A stretch of 25,002 nucleotides of DNA, from the NCBI GenBank assembly GCA_021399345.1, contig JAAFKI010000121.1, positions 1-25,002 on the forward strand, in the 5' to 3' direction. Positions 4,089 to 11,834 of this stretch are shown in pieces. A program made the translations under genes and the position numbers. The DNA is from Candidatus Heimdallarchaeota archaeon (lineage in GTDB: Archaea > Asgardarchaeota > Heimdallarchaeia > Heimdallarchaeales > Heimdallarchaeaceae). Below the pieces are notes generated by a model. That model did not search any database and was not told the DNA's origin. It saw only the letters and a program-made list of their open reading frames with translations. How positions within the stretch are numbered: the stretch's first letter is position 1; each line of letters starts with the position of its first letter.

Positions 4089-4210
4089 TTGAATCAATCA
4101 AAATATAGATTGGGTGCAAATAAACTTTTGTGAAAATTCTTTTTTCTCATTTTTTTCAAAAAAACGATATACTAAAAATTTATTACTCTCTATGCGTCAA
4201 AAAACACACT

Positions 4211-6136
4211 ATGACATCAGTAGAAAGATTGTGCGAAAAACATACTGTTGAAAATGCTTTAGAACACGGGAAAGCAGCTATAGGTCCTGTAATGGGTAGA
4301 GTCTTTAAAGCTAATCCCGAATTGAGAAAGAATGCAGACATCATCAGAGAAATATTGGGAAATAAGATTGATTATATTAACTCATTAAAGCCTGAAGAAA
4401 TACAACAACTCGCACAAGATAAGTATCCAGAACTTCTGCAAAAGAAGGAAGAAATAGTTCAGGAAGAAGCTGATTTCATACGAGAGATTATTGAAGAACA
4501 TAACCGAACCGGAAGATTTGGAGGAAAGGTCCATACTCGATTCCCTCCAGAACCCAATGGATGGCTTCATGTTGGTCATGCATATTCCATTAATCGAAAC
4601 TATAACTTTGCAGTAGAATATGGAGGTAAATTCAACCTAAGATTTGATGATACAAATCCTCTAACAGAAGAAGAAGAATTTGTTGATTCAATAATTAATG
4701 ATGTTCTTTGGTTAGGAGTTGACTATGAAGATAGACTTCTCTTTGCATCAGATTACTTTGACCAGCTCTATGAATATGCAGTTCAACTAGTTAAGAAAGG
4801 GTTAGCATATGTGGATGATTCAAGTGTTGAAGAAATACGAGAAATGAGAGGAACCATTACAGAACATGGTAAGGAAAGTCCATACAGAAACAGATCAATT
4901 GAAGAAAATCTAGATCTGTTTGAGAGAATGAAAGCTGGAGAATTTAAGGACGGGGAAAGAGTTCTTCGAGCAAAAATCGATATGGCTCATCCTAATATGT
5001 TAATGAGGGATCCGATAGTATACAGAATCCTTCATGCAAGTCATCATAATACTGGTGATAAGTGGTGCATTTATCCAATGTATGATTGGGCTCATGGTTT
5101 AGAGGATTCAATCGAAAGGATAACTCATTCAATCTGTACTCTGGAATTCGAAGTACATAGGTCACTTTATGATTGGTATATAGATCAATTAGACAATGAA
5201 GATGGTAATCCAATTCATCATTCTCAACAAATAGAATTTGCTAAAATGAATCTCTCCTACATGGTCCTTAGTAAAAGAAGACTGAGGATGCTTGTAGAGG
5301 AAGGTTATGTCAACGGATGGGATGATCCTCGAATGCTCACAATAGCCGGAATGAGAAGAAGAGGATATACACCAGAAGCAATACGAAATTTCTCTTTAGC
5401 TATTAACTTCACTAAAAGAGAAAAATTGATTGATATGTCTATCTTTGAACACTACATACGAGAAGATTTGGATAAAAGATGCCCAAGAGTTATGAGTGTA
5501 ATCAATCCTGTCAAACTAGTTTTAACAAACTATCCAGAAGATCAAGAAGAGGAGTTTACAGTTCCAAATCACCCATCTGATAAAGAAATGGGGACTAGAA
5601 AGGTTAAATTTAGTAAAAACCTCTTCATTGAGCAAGAAGATTTCATGGAAACTCCTCCTGAAGACTATTATCGTCTTTCACCAGGAAAAGAAGTTAGATT
5701 GAAATATGCCTATTTCGTAAAGTGTGAAAGTGTGGTCAAAGATGAAAGAACTGGGAAGATAACTGAAATTCATTGTACATATGATCCTACAACTAAAGGA
5801 GGAGAATCTCCAGATGGAAGAAAAGTACAAGGAACTATTCACTGGATATCCGCTAACAATACACTAGAAGTTGAAGTAAGATTATATGATAGAATGTATA
5901 CTAAGGAGAATCCAATGGATACTGAAGAAGGAAAAGAGTTCAAAGATTATATCAATCCCGATTCTATAAATATAATGAAATCATATGTGGAACCATTCCT
6001 AAAGGATAATGAACCAGAATCAAGGTTCCAGTTTGAAAGAAATGGGTATTTTGTTATAGACTTAGTCGATTCAACAAAAGAAAAATTGGTCTTAAACAGA
6101 ATAATTACTTTGAGAGATTCATGGGCTAAAAAATAA
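4211..6136 (+). CDS. glnS: Glutaminyl-tRNA synthetase (bacterial-type core) with an archaeal GluRS-like N-terminal domain
   Basis: From residue ~88 the protein is collinear with E. coli GlnS as I recall it: FIREII, TRFPPEPNGWLHVGH (HIGH), RFDDTNP, WCIYPMYD, ITHSICTLEF (Cys as in GlnRS, not the Arg of GluRS), VLSKR (MSK), GWDDPR, beta-barrel anticodon domain KVQGTIHW, FQFERNGYF, and terminal LRDSW. ATG at 4211 (641 aa) is preferred over GTG at 4130. Confidence 0.95.
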   Translation: MTSVERLCEKHTVENALEHGKAAIGPVMGRVFKANPELRKNADIIREILGNKIDYINSLKPEEIQQLAQDKYPELLQKKEEIVQEEADFIREIIEEHNRTGRFGGKVHTRFPPEPNGWLHVGHAYSINRNYNFAVEYGGKFNLRFDDTNPLTEEEEFVDSIINDVLWLGVDYEDRLLFASDYFDQLYEYAVQLVKKGLAYVDDSSVEEIREMRGTITEHGKESPYRNRSIEENLDLFERMKAGEFKDGERVLRAKIDMAHPNMLMRDPIVYRILHASHHNTGDKWCIYPMYDWAHGLEDSIERITHSICTLEFEVHRSLYDWYIDQLDNEDGNPIHHSQQIEFAKMNLSYMVLSKRRLRMLVEEGYVNGWDDPRMLTIAGMRRRGYTPEAIRNFSLAINFTKREKLIDMSIFEHYIREDLDKRCPRVMSVINPVKLVLTNYPEDQEEEFTVPNHPSDKEMGTRKVKFSKNLFIEQEDFMETPPEDYYRLSPGKEVRLKYAYFVKCESVVKDERTGKITEIHCTYDPTTKGGESPDGRKVQGTIHWISANNTLEVEVRLYDRMYTKENPMDTEEGKEFKDYINPDSINIMKSYVEPFLKDNEPESRFQFERNGYFVIDLVDSTKEKLVLNRIITLRDSWAKK

Positions 6137-6147
6137 GCAGAGCATTA

Positions 6148-6160
6148 GAAAAATTTAAAA
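6148..6160 (+). promoter_or_regulatory. Putative BRE/TATA promoter of tRNA-Gln(UUG)
   Basis: Purine-rich GAAAAA followed by TTTAAAA, 46 nt upstream of the mature tRNA 5' end. Confidence 0.4.
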
Positions 6161-6179
6161 TTGAAACAATAAATCAACG

Positions 6180-6201
6180 GTTGTCAAAGAAATTTGACAA
6201 C
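6180..6201. repeat. Perfect 9-bp inverted repeat with a GAAA loop in the tRNA 5' leader
   Basis: GTTGTCAAA-GAAA-TTTGACAAC ends 5 nt before tRNA position 1. Confidence 0.8.
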
Positions 6202-6206
6202 ACTTT

Positions 6207-6314
6207 AGTCCCTTGGTGTAGCCTGGAAACATTCCAGACTTTGAATCTGGCGCCGGGAGTTCAAAAGGTATTCTCTTGCGAGGAGAGCCTGAATTTATCT
6301 CCCAGGGACTACCA
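6207..6314 (+). tRNA. tRNA-Gln(UUG) with a 32-nt intron at non-canonical position 58/59 (intron 6265-6296) and encoded CCA
   Basis: Acceptor AGTCCCT/AGGGACT + A73 + CCA. D arm GTGT/ACAT. Anticodon arm CCAGA-CT-TTG-AA-TCTGG (TTG at 6241-6243). T stem GGGAG/CTCCC. Removing 6265-6296 restores the TTCAAAT loop, and the junctions fold into a bulge-helix-bulge. Confidence 0.92.
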
Positions 6315-6461
6315 ACTTTTTCTAATTAATGAGATCAAAAACTAGTATCTTTTGTTTCAAGTGATTCTTTCAGTTCAAGTAACAAGGATTTCTTATAAAA
6401 AAGAGTTAAATACGTACACTACTTCTGTATTTGTTGAAGAGATTAATAAGAAGGAGATTAT

Positions 6462-6794
6462 ATGAGCTCAGAGAAATTTAAGAGAAAGTTTCAAGCAATA
6501 TGGATTTCATTCAGACCTTTTCTGATTTTCTTATTGGTAATAGCTATTTTGTTTGCTATACCTCTGCTCATTATAGCTTTGGTTTTGTTATTTGATGATA
6601 ATAACGTTACTTTCCTTATTCTTGTAATTATAGACTTCTCTGTTCTTGGAATTTTTGCAATAGGATTCTTAGCTTTTGGATTCCAGTATGTAATATCATT
6701 ACTAATAGAAAAAGAAGAAGTAAAATGTATCAATTGTGGAAAGACAATATCTAGTAAAGCTAAAATCTGCTCTGTATGTGGTGTAGAGCAGTAA
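6462..6794 (+). CDS. Two-TM membrane protein with a C-terminal zinc ribbon
   Basis: Two hydrophobic segments followed by CINCG...CSVCG. An AAGGAG RBS lies upstream. Confidence 0.7.
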   Translation: MSSEKFKRKFQAIWISFRPFLIFLLVIAILFAIPLLIIALVLLFDDNNVTFLILVIIDFSVLGIFAIGFLAFGFQYVISLLIEKEEVKCINCGKTISSKAKICSVCGVEQ

Positions 6795-6943
6795 TAAGAG
6801 CAAATCAACACTAAAAGACTAACTAAATATAACAAACTAAGATTTCAATTTCTGAATCACTAAACACTTCGGATATAATAGTTTGAGAAATTCATTCAAG
6901 AAAAATTGTTTTTTGTATCAGAAAGAAAAAAAGGTTAAAGGAA

Positions 6944-8665
6944 TTAATTATTCCTTCTCTTCATTTTAAAAGTTATATAACTTGGTACTAATGTTATTAA
7001 TCCAATCATGATAAAAAGAGATTGTATAGGAAGCTCAGGTATCACTGGCGGGAGTTCTACTATAACCCATTCTTCATTCGATGAACGATTCAAATACTCA
7101 TTAGAAGCAACAACAATATAGTAATAAATTCCAGGTGTTAAAAAGAGATCTTCATAAGTTGTTGAGCTTGTAAGAGTTGCTAGTGGAGTTAAACTAGCAA
7201 AGGAAACTATAGGTATTAGTGAACGATAAATATAATATTTCTCTGTATTCGATACTGCATTCCAATTTAGAGTGATATTACCTGTAGTACTAACACTAGG
7301 TGAAATATCATCTAATATGGGATAAGGTAATCTTAGTAGCTTTCTATAGAAAATATCTATATCGTCTCCAGAATTAGTATAATTGGTCCAATCATGCCAT
7401 ACAATATGAATATTTCCTTCATCACTCCAAGTAACATCTGGAAAAGCAGCTCCATCTGTGCTTACTGTGGATACTAGTTCAGTTGTATTCCAAGTTGAAT
7501 CTGTAGAATTCCAAAATTTATAAAAAATGTCCCAGTCAGAGTCAGTCACTAGATAGTTTGTATAATCATGCCACACTACGTGGATATTATCAACGTTATC
7601 AACAACAAGAGCTGGATTACTCGATGAATCACTGCTTTCAGAAGACACTACCTCTGTAGTGGCCCATGAGGAAGTTATAGCAGATTTCTGTCTGTGAAAA
7701 ATGTCTTGATCAGGACCTCCATAAATGTCTATTATATCCTTCCAAGCTATGTGAACATTACCTAAACTATCAACATCAATAGAAGGTGTGTCTGAATATG
7801 CATTTGAATATGTAGAAACCACTTCTGTAATGGTCCAAATTCTACTTGTTGCATTCCAGAATTTATAAAATATATCTGAATCTGATCCACAAAATGCATA
7901 ATTTGTATTATCTTTCCATGCAATATGCACATCACCCAAAGTGGTGACTACAAGGGTAGGTTCATTTGAAGCTAATGTACTCTCAGTGGATACTACTTCT
8001 GTGGAATTCCAACTCATACTTGTTGCATTCCAGAATTTATAGAATATATCTGCATCTGTACCTGAGCCTGCATAATTGGTCCAATCAACCCAAGCTGCAT
8101 GTACATTTCCATTATCATCAACAGCTAAAGACACATACGCTGAAACCGAGGTACTCTCAGTAGCTAGTACTTCTGTAGAACTCCAACTCATACTTGTTGC
8201 ATTCCAGGATTTATAAAAAATGTCATAATCTGGCATATCAAACCAAGCTACATGTACATTTCCGTTACCATCTACGGCAATAGAAGGTAGTTGACTATCA
8301 AATGTACTCTCAGTGGATACTACTTCTGTGGAATTCCAACTCTTACTTGTTGCATTCCAGAATTTATAGAATATATCGGTATCTATACCACAATTTGTAT
8401 AGTTGGTGTAGTCATACCAAGCTACATGTACATTACCATTTGAATCTACTGCAATAGAAGAGCGACCTGATAAGCCATTACTTTCTGTAGATATTACTTC
8501 TGTTGTTAACCACATAGTTTCAGTGTAGCTGCTTTCTGTGTTAATATTTTGCACTTTTGAAGATTCTATTGATGCTATCATATCTTTTGAAATCATTATA
8601 GTTACTATGAGAAATATTAGTAAAACAGGTAAGCCTATCTTTCTTATTTTCTTATTTAATTTCAC
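6944..8665 (-). CDS. Cell-surface glycoprotein: signal peptide, 7-repeat beta-propeller, FN3-like domain, C-terminal sorting motif and TM anchor
   Basis: Seven ~58-aa repeats (TEVVSTES..S..P.I.VD..GNVH.AW.D....DIFYK.WN.T..W). FN3-like segment LNW..V...YYIYRS...Y.D...G.YYY.VVA.N. Ends in IPELP + TM + KMKRR. Many NxS/T sequons. Probable start is GTG at 8665 (ORF track gives 8737). Confidence 0.8.
   Translation of the reverse strand: MKLNKKIRKIGLPVLLIFLIVTIMISKDMIASIESSKVQNINTESSYTETMWLTTEVISTESNGLSGRSSIAVDSNGNVHVAWYDYTNYTNCGIDTDIFYKFWNATSKSWNSTEVVSTESTFDSQLPSIAVDGNGNVHVAWFDMPDYDIFYKSWNATSMSWSSTEVLATESTSVSAYVSLAVDDNGNVHAAWVDWTNYAGSGTDADIFYKFWNATSMSWNSTEVVSTESTLASNEPTLVVTTLGDVHIAWKDNTNYAFCGSDSDIFYKFWNATSRIWTITEVVSTYSNAYSDTPSIDVDSLGNVHIAWKDIIDIYGGPDQDIFHRQKSAITSSWATTEVVSSESSDSSSNPALVVDNVDNIHVVWHDYTNYLVTDSDWDIFYKFWNSTDSTWNTTELVSTVSTDGAAFPDVTWSDEGNIHIVWHDWTNYTNSGDDIDIFYRKLLRLPYPILDDISPSVSTTGNITLNWNAVSNTEKYYIYRSLIPIVSFASLTPLATLTSSTTYEDLFLTPGIYYYIVVASNEYLNRSSNEEWVIVELPPVIPELPIQSLFIMIGLITLVPSYITFKMKRRNN
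7974..8377. repeat. Intragenic near-identical direct repeat (7974-8050 and 8301-8377)
   Basis: Two 77-bp copies differ at one base and lie 327 bp (two protein repeats) apart. A more diverged copy sits at about 8151-8220. Confidence 0.85.
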
Positions 8666-8760
8666 AATTTCACTTCCATTTATTTTAAAAAAATTGAAAC
8701 ATTGTACATAAGACAGAGAAATATTTAAGTGTTTCATAGTTTTCTAAATTTTGAAAAAAT

Positions 8761-9195
8761 CTATTCAATGTAGCAAACAAGAATTTCGATGTCTGTATCA
8801 GCATATACCTTTTGGATAATTTCTCTAACTTTGGGCCATTCTAACCTATCAATTCCACTTCCTATCTTAGGCATTGCTAACTTCGTAATTCTTTTTTCAT
8901 CACATATCTCTCTCATTTTCTTCAAAGCTTTGGTCATAGTAAAATAAGTAGGTTTGTGATAAACCAAGTTCTTAGTAATCAAGTTGAATACTTTTCCTAA
9001 TAGAATACATGTAGGATGTTCTAGAATTGAAGGATCTGCTTTTTCTATCTGTTTGAATTGTTCTTTTAGATTAAATTTCTTGTTGAATGGAACTGCAATA
9101 CCTCCCCCCATTACAAAATCTGAACTTATGCAGTGAACTAAATAATAATCATCTGAAACTGTAAACAGATCTTTCTTGACTTCAGAATATTCCAT
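8761..9195 (-). CDS. Macrodomain protein, TARG1/OARD1 (DarG-related) class ADP-ribosylhydrolase
   Basis: KDLF, HCISSDFVMGGGIA, NLITK...HKPTY and AMPKIGSGIDRLEW. The Lys and Asp matching the TARG1 catalytic pair are retained. Confidence 0.88.
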   Translation of the reverse strand: MEYSEVKKDLFTVSDDYYLVHCISSDFVMGGGIAVPFNKKFNLKEQFKQIEKADPSILEHPTCILLGKVFNLITKNLVYHKPTYFTMTKALKKMREICDEKRITKLAMPKIGSGIDRLEWPKVREIIQKVYADTDIEILVCYIE

Positions 9196-9248
9196 ACTTT
9201 GTAAACTTCACAGATATTTTAAAAAATTTATTCTGAATTTTGAATTTA

Positions 9249-10002
9249 CTATTTCGGATTGAAAGCGATAACCTTTGTTTTATCCAAACCAGCCTCTCTA
9301 TCTCCTATCATCCTGTGTTCCTTTTTTAATCTCACTCTAAACATATCTTCAAAGATTTTTCGTGTATAATATTGCATAATAGCAAAAGATTCCCACTCTT
9401 GTTCAATTTCACCAATTATTGGTTTAACAACCTTACCTGTATGTTGAATACATCCACCTAATTTTGGTATAATTCGTACTACTTGTTTACTATATTGACT
9501 ATACGCTTTCTTTCCACTTACTTTGGTTCCAGTTTTGTTCTGATAATCAGCTTTGTTGAGGTATTTTAGAAAATTTAACATATCTACTGGTTCATTCAGT
9601 TTTTCATTAAATAACTGTGCAAATTGCTCTTTGGAAGGAAGGTGTGGAGAGTTCAATAAGTCATAATCAACTTCTTCAGTTAGGTAGAAAGTTTTAGGTA
9701 ATATTGAAAATATTCTTCTCATCAGAATCTTAAGAGACCCTATTACTACTTGTGGGACAGGTTTAACGATAATAACCCTTAGATTGTTAAATTCTGATTT
9801 CTGTAGTTTTTTTTATAGTTTCTTGTAAAAATTTAATCCTTCTAAACTTAACAAGTAATACTTTATCCCATTCCTCTTTTCCTTTACCAATCAATTCAAA
9901 ACCATTATTACCTGACCAGAGTAATTTTCCACCTGATATGTGCGATTTGAAATTACTCTCAGTTTCTCCATTATTAAATAGAATTAAGAGAGATTTGCTC
10001 AT
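9249..10002 (-). pseudogene. Tandem DUF1330-like (dimeric alpha+beta barrel) gene interrupted by a frameshift in an A8 run
   Basis: ORFs 9787-10002 and 9249-9722 both carry the GG...W/H.G....IG....W....LV.Y/F pattern. Deleting one base from the T8 run at 9807-9814 joins them into one open 250-aa frame (..ETIKKLQKSEFNNLRVIIVKPVP..MRR). Confidence 0.7.
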
Positions 10003-10104
10003 AATGGTTTTCCATAAATTTATTTTTTATGTTTATCTAATGATGTTAGGTTCCAAAGGAAGGATTTAAAATCTGTATCGAAGAAGAGGAGAAGTAGTTA
10101 GAAT

Positions 10105-10179
10105 AGCCCTGTGGTGTAGTGGCCAAGCATTGTAGGTTTTGGCTTGCAGACGGAAGTTCGAATCTTCCTAGGGCTACCA
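10105..10179 (+). tRNA. Degenerate tRNA-Gln(UUG)-like gene with a 6-nt anticodon loop and encoded CCA; possibly a pseudo-tRNA
   Basis: Acceptor AGCCCTG/TAGGGCT + ACCA. Typical archaeal Gln D arm TGGTGTAGTGGCCAAGCAT. T arm GGAAG-TTCGAAT-CTTCC. The anticodon stem GTAGG/CTTGC has two G-U pairs and closes the loop TTTTGG. Confidence 0.8.
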
Positions 10180-10197
10180 GTTTCTTTTATCTTTCTT

Positions 10198-10926
10198 TTA
10201 CCAAGGTAACTCATTACCTTCCCAATCAAAAAACTTTCCAGTTTCTTCTATTGACAGATTATCAATTACCTTTCTCATTCCCTTTATTGATTCATAAGTA
10301 GTTAATGGTGCATTTTCTGTGTATTCCATTGTAGTTTTAACCCAACCAGGGTGAATGGAAGCAACAGTAATTCCTTCTTCTTTCAGATCTACAGAAAGAG
10401 CTTTAGTGATCATATTTAGTGCTGCCTTACTTGCACTATAGCTGTATCCTCCACCTTTACGACTTCTTCTACCTATACTCCCACTTGTTGATGAAATATT
10501 AACAATAATGGGGTTCTTTCCAGTTTTTATTAGGGGCAAAAACTTCTCAACAATCAATAATGGTGCAACAGAGTTTACTGTGAAAATCTTACCAAAATCC
10601 TCTTTATACAATCTACCCAATTCATCATTAAACTTCTCATCTCCTCCAAAGCGGATACCAGCATTATTAATCAGTATATCCAACCCATCTATTTCTTTAG
10701 AGATTAGAAAGTAAGCATTATCAATAGAATCTTTACTAGAAACATCCAAATCAACAAGAACTAGTTTCTCCCCAAATTTATCCCTTAATTCCAAAAGATC
10801 TGAATATCTGAAAGGATCTCTATTGCAGGCAATAATCTTATCCCCATTTTCTAATAACTGTCTTACAAATTCGAAACCCAATCCTCTACTACTTCCAGTG
10901 ATCAAAACTCTTCTCATGTTTTTCAT
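10198..10926 (-). CDS. Short-chain dehydrogenase/reductase, C-factor (CsgA)-like
   Basis: TGSSRGLG, LINNAG, NISS, YSASK and IHPGWVKT motifs. Confidence 0.92.
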   Translation of the reverse strand: MKNMRRVLITGSSRGLGFEFVRQLLENGDKIIACNRDPFRYSDLLELRDKFGEKLVLVDLDVSSKDSIDNAYFLISKEIDGLDILINNAGIRFGGDEKFNDELGRLYKEDFGKIFTVNSVAPLLIVEKFLPLIKTGKNPIIVNISSTSGSIGRRSRKGGGYSYSASKAALNMITKALSVDLKEEGITVASIHPGWVKTTMEYTENAPLTTYESIKGMRKVIDNLSIEETGKFFDWEGNELPW

Positions 10927-10944
10927 CTCTAATTATTTTTTTTT

Positions 10945-11655
10945 CTACCAAGGAACATCGTTTCCTTTTCTATCTAGAAATTTACCTGATTCGGATATTC
11001 CACTTCTATCTGTCAGATCTATTATTTTTGAAATCGGTTCTTCTATTTCTAGAGGTGCGTTTGAACCTCCCATATCAGTTTTTATCCAACCTGGATGAAT
11101 TGCTATTGTTGTTATACCTTGATCTCTCAAATCATTTGACAATATTTTGGTTATCATGTTGAGAGCTGCCTTACTTGCTGCATAGGAATACTTCCCACCA
11201 ACGTTTTTACTTGCTATACTTCCATTTTGAGAAGAAATGTTAATGATTTTAGCTCCTTCACTTTTTTCTAATAAGGGTAAGAATTTCTCACTCATTAGTA
11301 AAGGAGCAATTGAATTAACTAAGAAAACTTTACTGAAATCCTCTTTGTAAATTTCTCCAAGAATTGAAGATTCTTTTTCATTTCCTGAAATTATTCCAGC
11401 ATTGTTAATGAGAATATCAATGTTATCAAAATCCTTCTCAATTTTCTCAAAAACAGCATTTCTAGACTGTTCATTTACCACATCAAGTTGAACAATATTT
11501 AACTTACTAGGAAATTTAGCTTCTAACTCCTTTAGAGCATCAGCTTCTTCTGGTTTTCTACAGCTTGCTATGACAATTTCACCCTTTTTCAGATATTGCT
11601 TAGTAAATTCTAATCCCAACCCTCTGCTTGCGCCAGTAATGAATATTTTCTTCAT
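10945..11655 (-). CDS. Short-chain dehydrogenase/reductase, C-factor (CsgA)-like; tandem paralog of the adjacent gene
   Basis: TGASRGLG, LINNAG, YAASK and IHPGWIKTDMGG motifs. Start is 11655 or 11673. Confidence 0.92.
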   Translation of the reverse strand: MKKIFITGASRGLGLEFTKQYLKKGEIVIASCRKPEEADALKELEAKFPSKLNIVQLDVVNEQSRNAVFEKIEKDFDNIDILINNAGIISGNEKESSILGEIYKEDFSKVFLVNSIAPLLMSEKFLPLLEKSEGAKIINISSQNGSIASKNVGGKYSYAASKAALNMITKILSNDLRDQGITTIAIHPGWIKTDMGGSNAPLEIEEPISKIIDLTDRSGISESGKFLDRKGNDVPW

Positions 11656-11760
11656 GCAATATTTTACCGACATACCTTTATATTTACTTTCCTTGATTGT
11701 TTGAAGCGTCTACCAAAACTTTTAATTTCCCAATATCTTTCTCAACTCAACTAAGAATAA

Positions 11761-11834
11761 AGACCCATCGTCTAGTGGAAGGATACGGGATTCTGGTTCC
11801 TGTGGCAGGCGTTCAAATCGCCTTGGGTCTGCCA
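11761..11834 (+). tRNA. tRNA-Gln(CUG), intronless, encoded CCA
   Basis: Acceptor AGACCCA/TGGGTCT + G73 + CCA. D arm GTCT/GGAT. Anticodon arm CGGGA-TT-CTG-GT-TCCTG (CTG at 11793-11795). T arm AGGCG-TTCAAAT-CGCCT. Confidence 0.93.

Follow-up and report, generated by a model that had tools for sequence, protein, structure and literature searches.

Can an archaeon attach glutamine directly to its tRNA-Gln? According to two reviews from 2022, all or almost all archaea lack glutaminyl-tRNA synthetase (GlnRS) and always use the indirect route, and the explanation offered is that archaeal tRNA-Gln is a poor substrate for GlnRS (PMC9499178, PMC8762117). The question is raised by a locus of Candidatus Heimdallarchaeota archaeon (assembly GCA_021399345.1, Heimdallarchaeaceae), in which a glnS gene is followed by tRNA-Gln genes on the same strand. 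The stretch analysed, here called the window, is the entire contig JAAFKI010000121.1 (25,002 nucleotides) of a 3.27-Mb, 199-contig metagenome-assembled genome (MAG) with a completeness of 88.6%. A first-pass annotation, made from the sequence alone, had proposed that a direct Gln-tRNA pathway was acquired here as a module together with its substrate tRNAs. The elements of the locus are as follows.

4211..6136, + strand: glnS, predicted glutaminyl-tRNA synthetase of 641 amino acids (TIGR00440; PF00749/PF03950/PF20974)
4211..4525, + strand: N-terminal domain joined to the GlnRS core, YqeY-type as in archaeal GluRS (NF003169, pairwise matches)
6207..6314, + strand: tRNA-Gln(UUG) with A1-U72, A37, A73, an encoded CCA and a T-loop intron (hand reading; covariance model R1, 69.7 bits)
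6265..6296 (or 6266-6297), + strand: 32-nt T-loop intron (sequence, fold, congener comparison)
10105..10179, + strand: tRNA-Gln-derived gene with a 6-nt anticodon loop, UUUUGG, and with A1-U72, A73 and CCA (ARAGORN "tRNA-???"; Rfam, 42.6 bits)
11761..11834, + strand: tRNA-Gln(CUG) with A1-U72, G37, U38, G73 and CCA (ARAGORN; Rfam, 52.4 bits)

The reading that we consider probable is that a chimeric, bacterial-type GlnRS serves native, adapted tRNA-Gln alongside a retained GluRS/GatDE pathway. A working direct glutaminylation system would then run beside the ancestral archaeal indirect route.

The open reading frame (ORF) at 4130-6136 reaches 704.4 bits with TIGR00440, the glnS equivalog, whose cut-off is 425.8, and stays under the cut-offs of the GluRS equivalogs gltX_arch (375.7; cut-off 401.75) and NF003169 (357.7; cut-off 516). 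The true start is ATG 4211, from which the homologues are likewise 641 amino acids long. The product contains the class I Rossmann catalytic domain PF00749 (E = 1.6e-99) and both beta-barrel anticodon-binding domains, PF03950 and PF20974, and the catalytic motifs are intact in the translation (HVGH for HIGH, VLSKR for the KMSKS-like motif). In trees, GlnRS and GluRS are separated by a branch with 100% support and a length above 1, and the window enzyme lies on the GlnRS side. By family membership the ORF is a genuine GlnRS, and its product is predicted to attach Gln; the NCBI records of its homologues already carry the name glutamine--tRNA ligase. The gene is full-length, as the first-pass annotation had it, with tRNA-Gln(UUG) beginning 70 nt beyond the stop codon (6136 to 6207). 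The existing gene call for the contig begins glnS at an internal Met (566 amino acids, P0010; G, C, L, P and f numbers are our labels for genomes, contigs, loci, proteins and families), losing the N-terminal domain, and several NCBI GlnRS records are shortened likewise (559-618 amino acids).

That N-terminal domain has a different affinity from the rest of the protein. Residues 1 to about 100 gave no match in a Pfam search, the eukaryotic GatB-like N-domain PF04558/PF04557 included; NCBIfam and pairwise searches did match. The domain alone matches the archaeal GluRS model NF003169 at positions 4-88 (E = 7.8e-15). It is 26% identical to the N-terminus of GluRS from its own genome (BLASTP, E = 2e-11) and 33-40% identical to residues 5-83 of full-length GluRS from Nitrososphaerota, Thermoprotei and Micrarchaeota. 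In Methanothermobacter thermautotrophicus GluRS, residues 1-85 were named the N-terminal YQEY domain in the structure paper (PMC2978374). The core, on the other hand, is bacterial in type: the best bacterial matches are 63-65% identical, and among PDB entries the enzymes of Pseudomonas aeruginosa (673 bits) and Escherichia coli (657 bits) rank above those of human (418) and yeast (down to 397). Judged from these matches, the enzyme is chimeric, with a YqeY-type N-domain of the archaeal-GluRS kind and a catalytic and anticodon-binding core of bacterial type, and the archaeal N-domain claimed by the first-pass annotation is real. Independent attachment of YqeY/GatB-like modules is reported for Deinococcus GlnRS at the C-terminus and for eukaryotic GlnRS at the N-terminus (PMC1865053, PMC3333875, PMC4838373).

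A bacterial-looking core in a fragmented MAG might point to a piece of bacterial DNA misplaced in an archaeal bin through faulty binning or assembly. We give this explanation practically no weight: genes for actin (437 bits), NucS, Alba, a RIO kinase and an archaeal prepilin peptidase lie on the contig as well, its GC content is flat (30-38%), the protein itself bears an archaeal N-domain, and glnS recurs in four closed relatives and about 40 MAGs. The locus is genuinely archaeal, neither artefact nor contamination, in agreement with the first-pass annotation.

The distribution of glnS was surveyed in 301 Asgard genomes from 30 families. Here f1 is Heimdallarchaeaceae, by the NCBI names of close glnS homologues; f2-f4 belong to the same order as f1 and were glnS-less in the search; f5 and f6 fit Hodarchaeales and Kariarchaeaceae, and f5 is called Hodarchaeales-like. 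The gene was found in 43 of the 301 genomes, four closed ones included, and its carriers all belong to three or four families within a single class (f1, 20/28; f5, 12/21; f6, 9/11; f7, 1/2); it was not found in the 26 other Asgard families searched, f2-f4 included. A 2024 preprint mentions in passing GlnRS beside cox genes in Hodarchaeales and Kariarchaeaceae; it was the only mention returned by a literature search on archaeal GlnRS, and the main Heimdallarchaeia genome papers contain nothing on the subject. The arrangement of glnS with tRNA-Gln recurs in 17 of the 25 genomes of the window's genus. The eight MAGs of the genus without glnS are the same eight without any tRNA-Gln match, as expected if one physically linked locus is missing from the assembly. 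The N-domain is present in GlnRS of f1 and f6 and absent from f5 and bacterial GlnRS. A single gain on the f1+f6 stem is therefore the parsimonious reading, compared with three or four losses.

Where did the core come from? Trees were rooted with archaeal GluRS, without eukaryotic GluRS, and the eukaryotic GlnRS sequences (Amoebozoa, Anaeramoeba, plants) were reached via giant-virus GlnRS as a stepping stone. In every GluRS-rooted tree, a branch with 99-100% support unites Heimdall and bacterial GlnRS apart from eukaryotes. Forcing a Heimdall + eukaryote clade in a thorough search was 48.9 log-likelihood units worse and was rejected by the approximately unbiased (AU) test (p-AU 0.003). The window GlnRS is therefore not a vertical precursor of eukaryotic GlnRS. 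To judge from these trees, the locus is an analogue, not an ancestor, of the eukaryotic switch to direct glutaminylation; the bearing on that switch suggested by the first-pass annotation is lost, and the locus alone does not explain the origin of eukaryotic GlnRS.

Relationships inside the bacterial-type clade vary with sampling, and its basal branches are very short. In a 62-taxon maximum-likelihood tree with 40 bacteria of many phyla, Heimdall GlnRS is monophyletic (98.6 in the Shimodaira-Hasegawa-like approximate likelihood ratio test) and nested in Bacteria, and it is also nested there in a FastTree of 158 rows. An 84-row quick tree, with two separate Heimdall groups nested in Bacteria, was set aside because the constrained tree had the better likelihood. 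The phylogeny points to inter-domain transfer of the core, with the direction from Bacteria to archaea appreciably more credible than the reverse. The core would have entered Heimdallarchaeia by inter-domain gene transfer, most probably from Bacteria, and the transfer would be old, with its composition ameliorated and the gene common to three families.

The reverse history would make GlnRS old in Heimdallarchaeia, the sister or ancestor of all bacterial GlnRS; Bacteria would have received the enzyme from Heimdall-like archaea or proto-eukaryotes, and the N-domain would be a retained ancestral feature. A 52-taxon LG+F+R5 tree has this shape, in that f5 branches first and f1+f6 next, forming a basal grade outside a bacterial crown that is monophyletic (96.9/80), and under a C20 mixture model the tree with monophyletic Bacteria is likelier than the free quick tree. 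The constraint that Bacteria are monophyletic with Heimdall outside was never rejected (p-AU 0.62, 0.07, 0.26), although the fast constrained searches were clearly suboptimal and their AU values count only as "not rejected". The identity of the core to about 78 bacteria of many phyla is uniform (56-64%), and the N-domain has diverged from GluRS (26-40%) as much as the core (30%). This history nevertheless appears unlikely. When bacteria are sampled more broadly, Heimdall falls deep within Bacteria in the best trees; a basal position is the expected product of long-branch attraction to a long stem, and a bacterial fusion protein, P0130, shifted from a basal position into the crown once sampling improved. 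Moreover, glnS was found in only 3-4 of 30 Asgard families and not in the order-mates of f1 (f2-f4), the N-domain is missing from f5, Bacteria and eukaryotes alike, and GatDE is kept almost everywhere.

Two further groups of sequences were met during this work. Bacterial proteins of 1000-1140 amino acids combine GlnRS with the bacterial GluRS anticodon-binding domain PF19269 and are apparent GluRS-GlnRS fusions; they occur in MAGs of WOR-3, Bryobacteraceae and Proteobacteria (P0124-P0130, P0136, P0138, P0159, P0163, P0185, P0217). Giant-virus GlnRS (IMG/VR contigs, L079-L118) has at least two origins: some sequences fall inside the bacterial-type clade (L079, L081, L086, L096, L097) and others with eukaryotes (L103, L105). 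L108, L110 and L114 form a very divergent group.

We now turn to the tRNAs. The gene at 6207 was overlooked by ARAGORN and Rfam and was recovered by hand, by a custom Heimdall tRNA-Gln covariance model (69.7 bits) and through intronless orthologues. When 32 nt are removed, it matches letter for letter the intronless tRNA-Gln(UUG) that follows glnS in four congeners (G045, G184, G199, G301), which settles its identity. The intron lies at site 58/59 or equally 59/60, two placements made equivalent by a run of A. It folds into a relaxed structure resembling the bulge-helix-bulge (BHB) motif, with a GUUC/GAAU helix and the bulges AAA and UUA, and this fold requires a one-base slip of the T-stem. 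Within the genus the T-loop intron is present in seven genomes and absent from nine. The same intron occurs in G068, where a U-to-C change strengthens an AGGU/GCCU helix, and different intron sequences occupy the same site in G142 and G274. Non-canonical tRNA introns with a relaxed BHB are known mainly from Thermoproteales. The intron resembles these in its site outside 37/38, here in the T-loop, and in the flanking helix-bulge arrangement; it differs in residing in an Asgard tRNA-Gln, in its patchy occurrence among the species of one genus, and in a BHB that needs a T-stem slip. The spacer ahead of the gene (6150-6206) contains an A/T-rich TATA-like box (AAAAATTTAAAA) and, immediately 5' of the tRNA, a perfect 9-bp hairpin (GTTGTCAAA...TTTGACAAC). 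TATA-like boxes also precede the genes at 10105 and 11761 by about 35-45 nt.

The tRNA-Gln(CUG) at 11761 was found by both ARAGORN and Rfam, as annotated in the first pass; in congeners its discriminator is G73 or A73. No tRNA besides the three Gln-type genes was found in the window, and no further tRNA-Gln gene in the 88.6%-complete assembly. Archaeal tRNA-Gln is characterised by an A1-U72 first pair and an A73 discriminator (PMC9499178). A1-U72 occurs in all three window genes, A73 at 6207 and 10105, and G73 at 11761.

The gene at 10105 had been taken for a second UUG-type tRNA-Gln, a designation that does not survive closer inspection. Its 5-bp anticodon stem carries a loop of 6 nt in place of the canonical 7, and ARAGORN, which gives a 2-nt anticodon, cannot assign it. 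The loop is conserved as UUU[U/A/C]GG across six genomes of the genus, the other five reading UUUAGG or UUUCGG (orthologues at L025:1168-1242, L031:1132-1206, L035:1165-1239, L283:564-638 and L286:1501-1575). All 21 cloverleaf pairs are intact in every copy. Double compensatory changes occur at pairs 7-66 (G-U, G-C, A-U) and 49-65 (G-C, G-U, A-U), and the covariation among the four distinct sequences is suggestive, not significant (117/500 shuffles). The 5' half differs hardly at all from that of the ordinary tRNA-Gln in a sister family without GlnRS, which implies descent from an ancestral archaeal tRNA-Gln. A loop position that would alter the anticodon differs among species. The gene therefore probably does not decode, and it looks like a maintained non-decoding tRNA, not a decaying pseudogene. 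In G184 and G199 the odd tRNA-like gene begins about 100 nt past the UUG tRNA. A second aberrant tRNA-like gene was noted in G130 (L152:1501-1577), 3.2 kb beyond tRNA-Gln(CUG); it has A1-U72 and A73, and ARAGORN reads a 4-base anticodon (attt) in its AU-rich loop of about 8 nt.

The identity nucleotides of tRNA-Gln were compared between genomes with and without GlnRS. The comparison covers few genomes (three for f2/f4, four for f5) and, for the linked copies, the 30 glnS loci fetched, 29 of which come from other genomes.

f2 and f4, GlnRS absent: six tRNA-Gln genes in three genomes, all A73 and G37, on separate contigs and unlinked
f1, f5 and f6, GlnRS present: glnS-adjoining UUG tRNA read in 16 of 30 loci; A37 in 16/16, G37 in none
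f5, four genomes, GlnRS without N-domain: a G73/A37 pair without encoded CCA, and A73/G37 copies elsewhere
This window, GlnRS with N-domain: UUG, A37/A73; CUG, G37/U38/G73

G73 and A37 are identity elements for E. coli GlnRS. The G73/A37 pair of f5 adjoins glnS in G256, G136 and G208 and is about 117 kb off in the closed genome G241. Of the A73/G37 copies in f5, both isoacceptors were found in G136 and one each in G256, G208 and G241, most with canonical introns; the intron-bearing tRNA-Gln genes of this family were mis-called by ARAGORN as Pyl, Lys, Ser or Tyr (L130, L137, L166-L181). An unlinked tRNA-Gln(UUG) in G235 (f6; L174:1501-1576) has U73, the eukaryotic state; in the close relative G119 the discriminator is A73.

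Were these tRNAs brought in with the enzyme, as the first-pass annotation supposed? UC at positions 8-9 and the GUCUAG D-arm of the CUG tRNA had raised the idea that the linked tRNAs are bacterial in origin. We rejected it because the acceptor stems are A1-U72 and identical to those of unlinked archaeal copies, the T-arms do not resemble those of bacteria, and GlnRS-less f4 has this D-arm too. By these features the linked tRNAs are native archaeal molecules that were not co-acquired with the enzyme, so that the notion of an imported module does not hold. These native tRNAs would instead have gained nucleotides recognised by bacterial GlnRS, A37 in the UUG and G73 in the CUG isoacceptor. YqeY/GatB-like modules help tRNA binding in Deinococcus and eukaryotic GlnRS, and by analogy the appended YqeY domain may raise tRNA affinity so that the enzyme accepts the A73 archaeal tRNA-Gln. 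The f5-type GlnRS, without the N-domain, would rely instead on a G73/A37 tRNA set dedicated to it. Such a pattern is consistent with the substrate barrier having been overcome in two ways: an altered tRNA in f5, or an added tRNA-binding domain in f1 and f6, where A73 is mostly kept.

Has the indirect pathway been displaced? In the own genome of the window, archaeal GluRS (428 bits), gatD (482) and gatE (409) all score above cut-off and are free of stops, gatD and gatE being adjacent and full-length; gatB was not found in this genome. Across the class gatE occurs in 78 of 83 genomes, closed GlnRS-positive ones included, and gatD/gatE are kept in 27 of 30 f1 genomes. This retention of gatD, gatE and GluRS implies that GlnRS supplements the indirect route; of the two options in the first-pass annotation, replacing or supplementing GatDE, the second stands and the first falls. 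Going by gene content, direct and indirect routes to Gln-tRNA(Gln) coexist in this genome.

A more radical division of labour would be that in this genus GlnRS has effectively taken over, charging both decoding tRNA-Gln species, with GluRS/GatDE redundant, decaying or kept for another job, for example on the tRNA with the 6-nt loop. There are just two decoding tRNA-Gln genes here and in closed f1 genomes; the sole gene still like the ancestral A73-type tRNA-Gln lacks a normal anticodon loop; and the low GatE scores in f1 (375-410 bits, as against 560-640 in the GlnRS-less sister families f2-f4) suggest relaxed or shifted constraint. We regard such a take-over as a minority possibility, since gatD and gatE are intact by the measures given above, their retention in f1 argues for ongoing selection, and nothing ties GatDE to the odd tRNA.

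Several observations on the genes of the indirect pathway are recorded here. In the f6 genomes gatE is present twice, with scores of about 640 and about 320-437 bits. In the own genome a gatE-like fragment lies at a contig end (C121:2111-2368), and the gatDE region is at G000 C163:21350-24595. A tRNA-His(GUG) gene occurs just upstream of gatDE (G000 C163:25926-26000; closed relative G026 C1:2590822-2590896). In closed G241 (f5) the archaeal GluRS model at E <= 1e-50 finds GlnRS only, and the GluRS of this genome may be divergent or of another type. GluRS of G054 (f2) is below cut-off at 349 bits.

The synteny of glnS and tRNA-Gln, which the first-pass annotation proposed to test, extends across three Asgard families. 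In 19 of the 29 loci from other genomes (f1, f5, f6), ARAGORN calls a tRNA-Gln no more than 1.5 kb from glnS, and in four more the adjoining tRNA-Gln was mis-typed or missed owing to an intron. The spacing is typically 50-1000 nt in most of these loci, with tRNA-Gln on the same strand as glnS in f1 and f6 and convergent in f5. Within the genus, every tRNA-Gln match is on the glnS contig except an intron-bearing UUG copy in G193 and a CUG copy in G123, the latter beginning at base 4 of its contig. The first-pass annotation had reasoned that the same tRNA cluster in glnS-less relatives would make the linkage incidental; tRNA-Gln is present there, but unlinked and of the A73/G37 type, which strengthens the case for the linkage.

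The neighbourhood could still be incidental, if the incoming DNA landed at a tRNA gene or the arrangement was merely inherited, with no functional coupling. Transfer RNA genes are frequent integration sites, the orientation differs by family, the distance reaches 13-117 kb in closed f1 genomes and G241, and unrelated genes sit between the window tRNAs. We think this quite improbable. The neighbour is always tRNA-Gln and never another tRNA, both in the three families and in about 10 of 78 bacterial loci; the adjoining copies are those with GlnRS-type A37/G73; and the window contains neither an integrase nor a duplicated tRNA 3' end, a search for an att-like duplicate having returned the tRNA itself only. 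The unrelated genes are the following.

6462..9722, mixed strands: four genes between the first and second tRNA, for a small zinc-ribbon membrane protein (+), a beta-propeller repeat protein (-), a macro-domain protein (-) and a product of no assigned function (-)
10198..11673, - strand: a tandem pair of genes for short-chain dehydrogenases, separating the second tRNA from the third (PF00106; E = 4e-41 and 1.4e-44)

Taken together, the data favour the reading given at the outset, of a chimeric bacterial-type GlnRS working with native tRNA-Gln beside GluRS/GatDE, and a number of points weigh against it. The amino-acid and tRNA specificity of the enzyme is predicted from family membership. The identity pattern is partial, as the f1 CUG tRNA keeps G37 and f6 and most f1 tRNAs keep A73, and it comes from few genomes. 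In closed f1 genomes there are just two tRNA-Gln genes, which makes separate substrates for the two pathways impossible there. On the origin of the core, the basal Heimdall grade of the 52-taxon tree, the unrejected constraint and the lack of a bacterial donor phylum that stands out all pull the other way. The linkage is loose in places: a tRNA-Gln pair lies 13 kb from glnS in two closed f1 genomes, and the G73 pair of closed G241 is distant as well. Furthermore, the bacterial loci in which glnS adjoins tRNA-Gln, with bacterial-type tRNAs, imply that such linkage is a recurrent glnS feature and not an archaeal invention. A different synthesis, which we hold to be doubtful, would combine a Heimdall GlnRS that is sister to or the stem of bacterial GlnRS with two partly orthogonal systems per cell, GlnRS with G73/A37 tRNAs and non-discriminating GluRS (ND-GluRS)/GatDE with A73/G37 tRNAs. 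If it were true, archaeal relatives of eukaryotes would have carried out direct glutaminylation, and their lineage would be the source of bacterial GlnRS.

With its bacterial-type GlnRS beside GatDE, the locus is an exception to the rule that archaea lack GlnRS, a rare archaeal addition, and it is one more of the bacterial-type components of translation that are increasingly being noted in Heimdallarchaeia. It offers a natural case of a substrate barrier that was crossed, apparently in two ways, by an appended YqeY domain and by G73/A37 tRNA-Gln copies. The co-occurrence of direct and indirect pathways in one lineage corresponds to the transitional state postulated for early eukaryotes and for bacteria that acquired GlnRS. 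It may thus provide material for studying how new synthetase-tRNA pairs are established, and near-orthogonal pairs for genetic-code engineering.

How does this system compare with known ones? With bacterial GlnRS (E. coli GlnS, P. aeruginosa 5BNZ) the archaeal enzyme shares the domain set, a core identity of 56-65% and a clade (99-100%), and a tRNA-Gln neighbour likewise occurs in a minority of the bacterial loci. It differs in its added host-type N-terminal YqeY domain and in its presumed substrates, which are A1-U72 and mostly A73, in contrast to U1-A72 and G73 in bacteria. It also coexists with GatDE, which to our knowledge never occurs in Bacteria.

The closest parallels in architecture are the GlnRS-YqeY chimera of Deinococcus radiodurans (PMC1865053) and related bacterial fusions. 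Like the window enzyme, they join a GlnRS core to a YqeY-family tRNA-binding module from the world of the indirect pathway; the Deinococcus module is C-terminal and GatB/YqeY-like (PF02637), and that of the window is N-terminal, of the archaeal-GluRS type and without a Pfam match. Eukaryotic GlnRS (PMC3333875, PMC4838373) also combines a direct pathway in an archaeal-derived lineage with an appended N-terminal tRNA sensor. However, its N-domain is a different one (PF04558/PF04557), it belongs to a different clade, and the window enzyme is nearer to the E. coli than to the human protein (657 against 418 bits). Finally, all three genes of the ND-GluRS and GatDE system of M. thermautotrophicus (PMC2978374) are found here too, and A1-U72 is kept in tRNA-Gln; the difference from that archaeal system is that GlnRS has been added and the tRNAs have shifted towards A37/G73.

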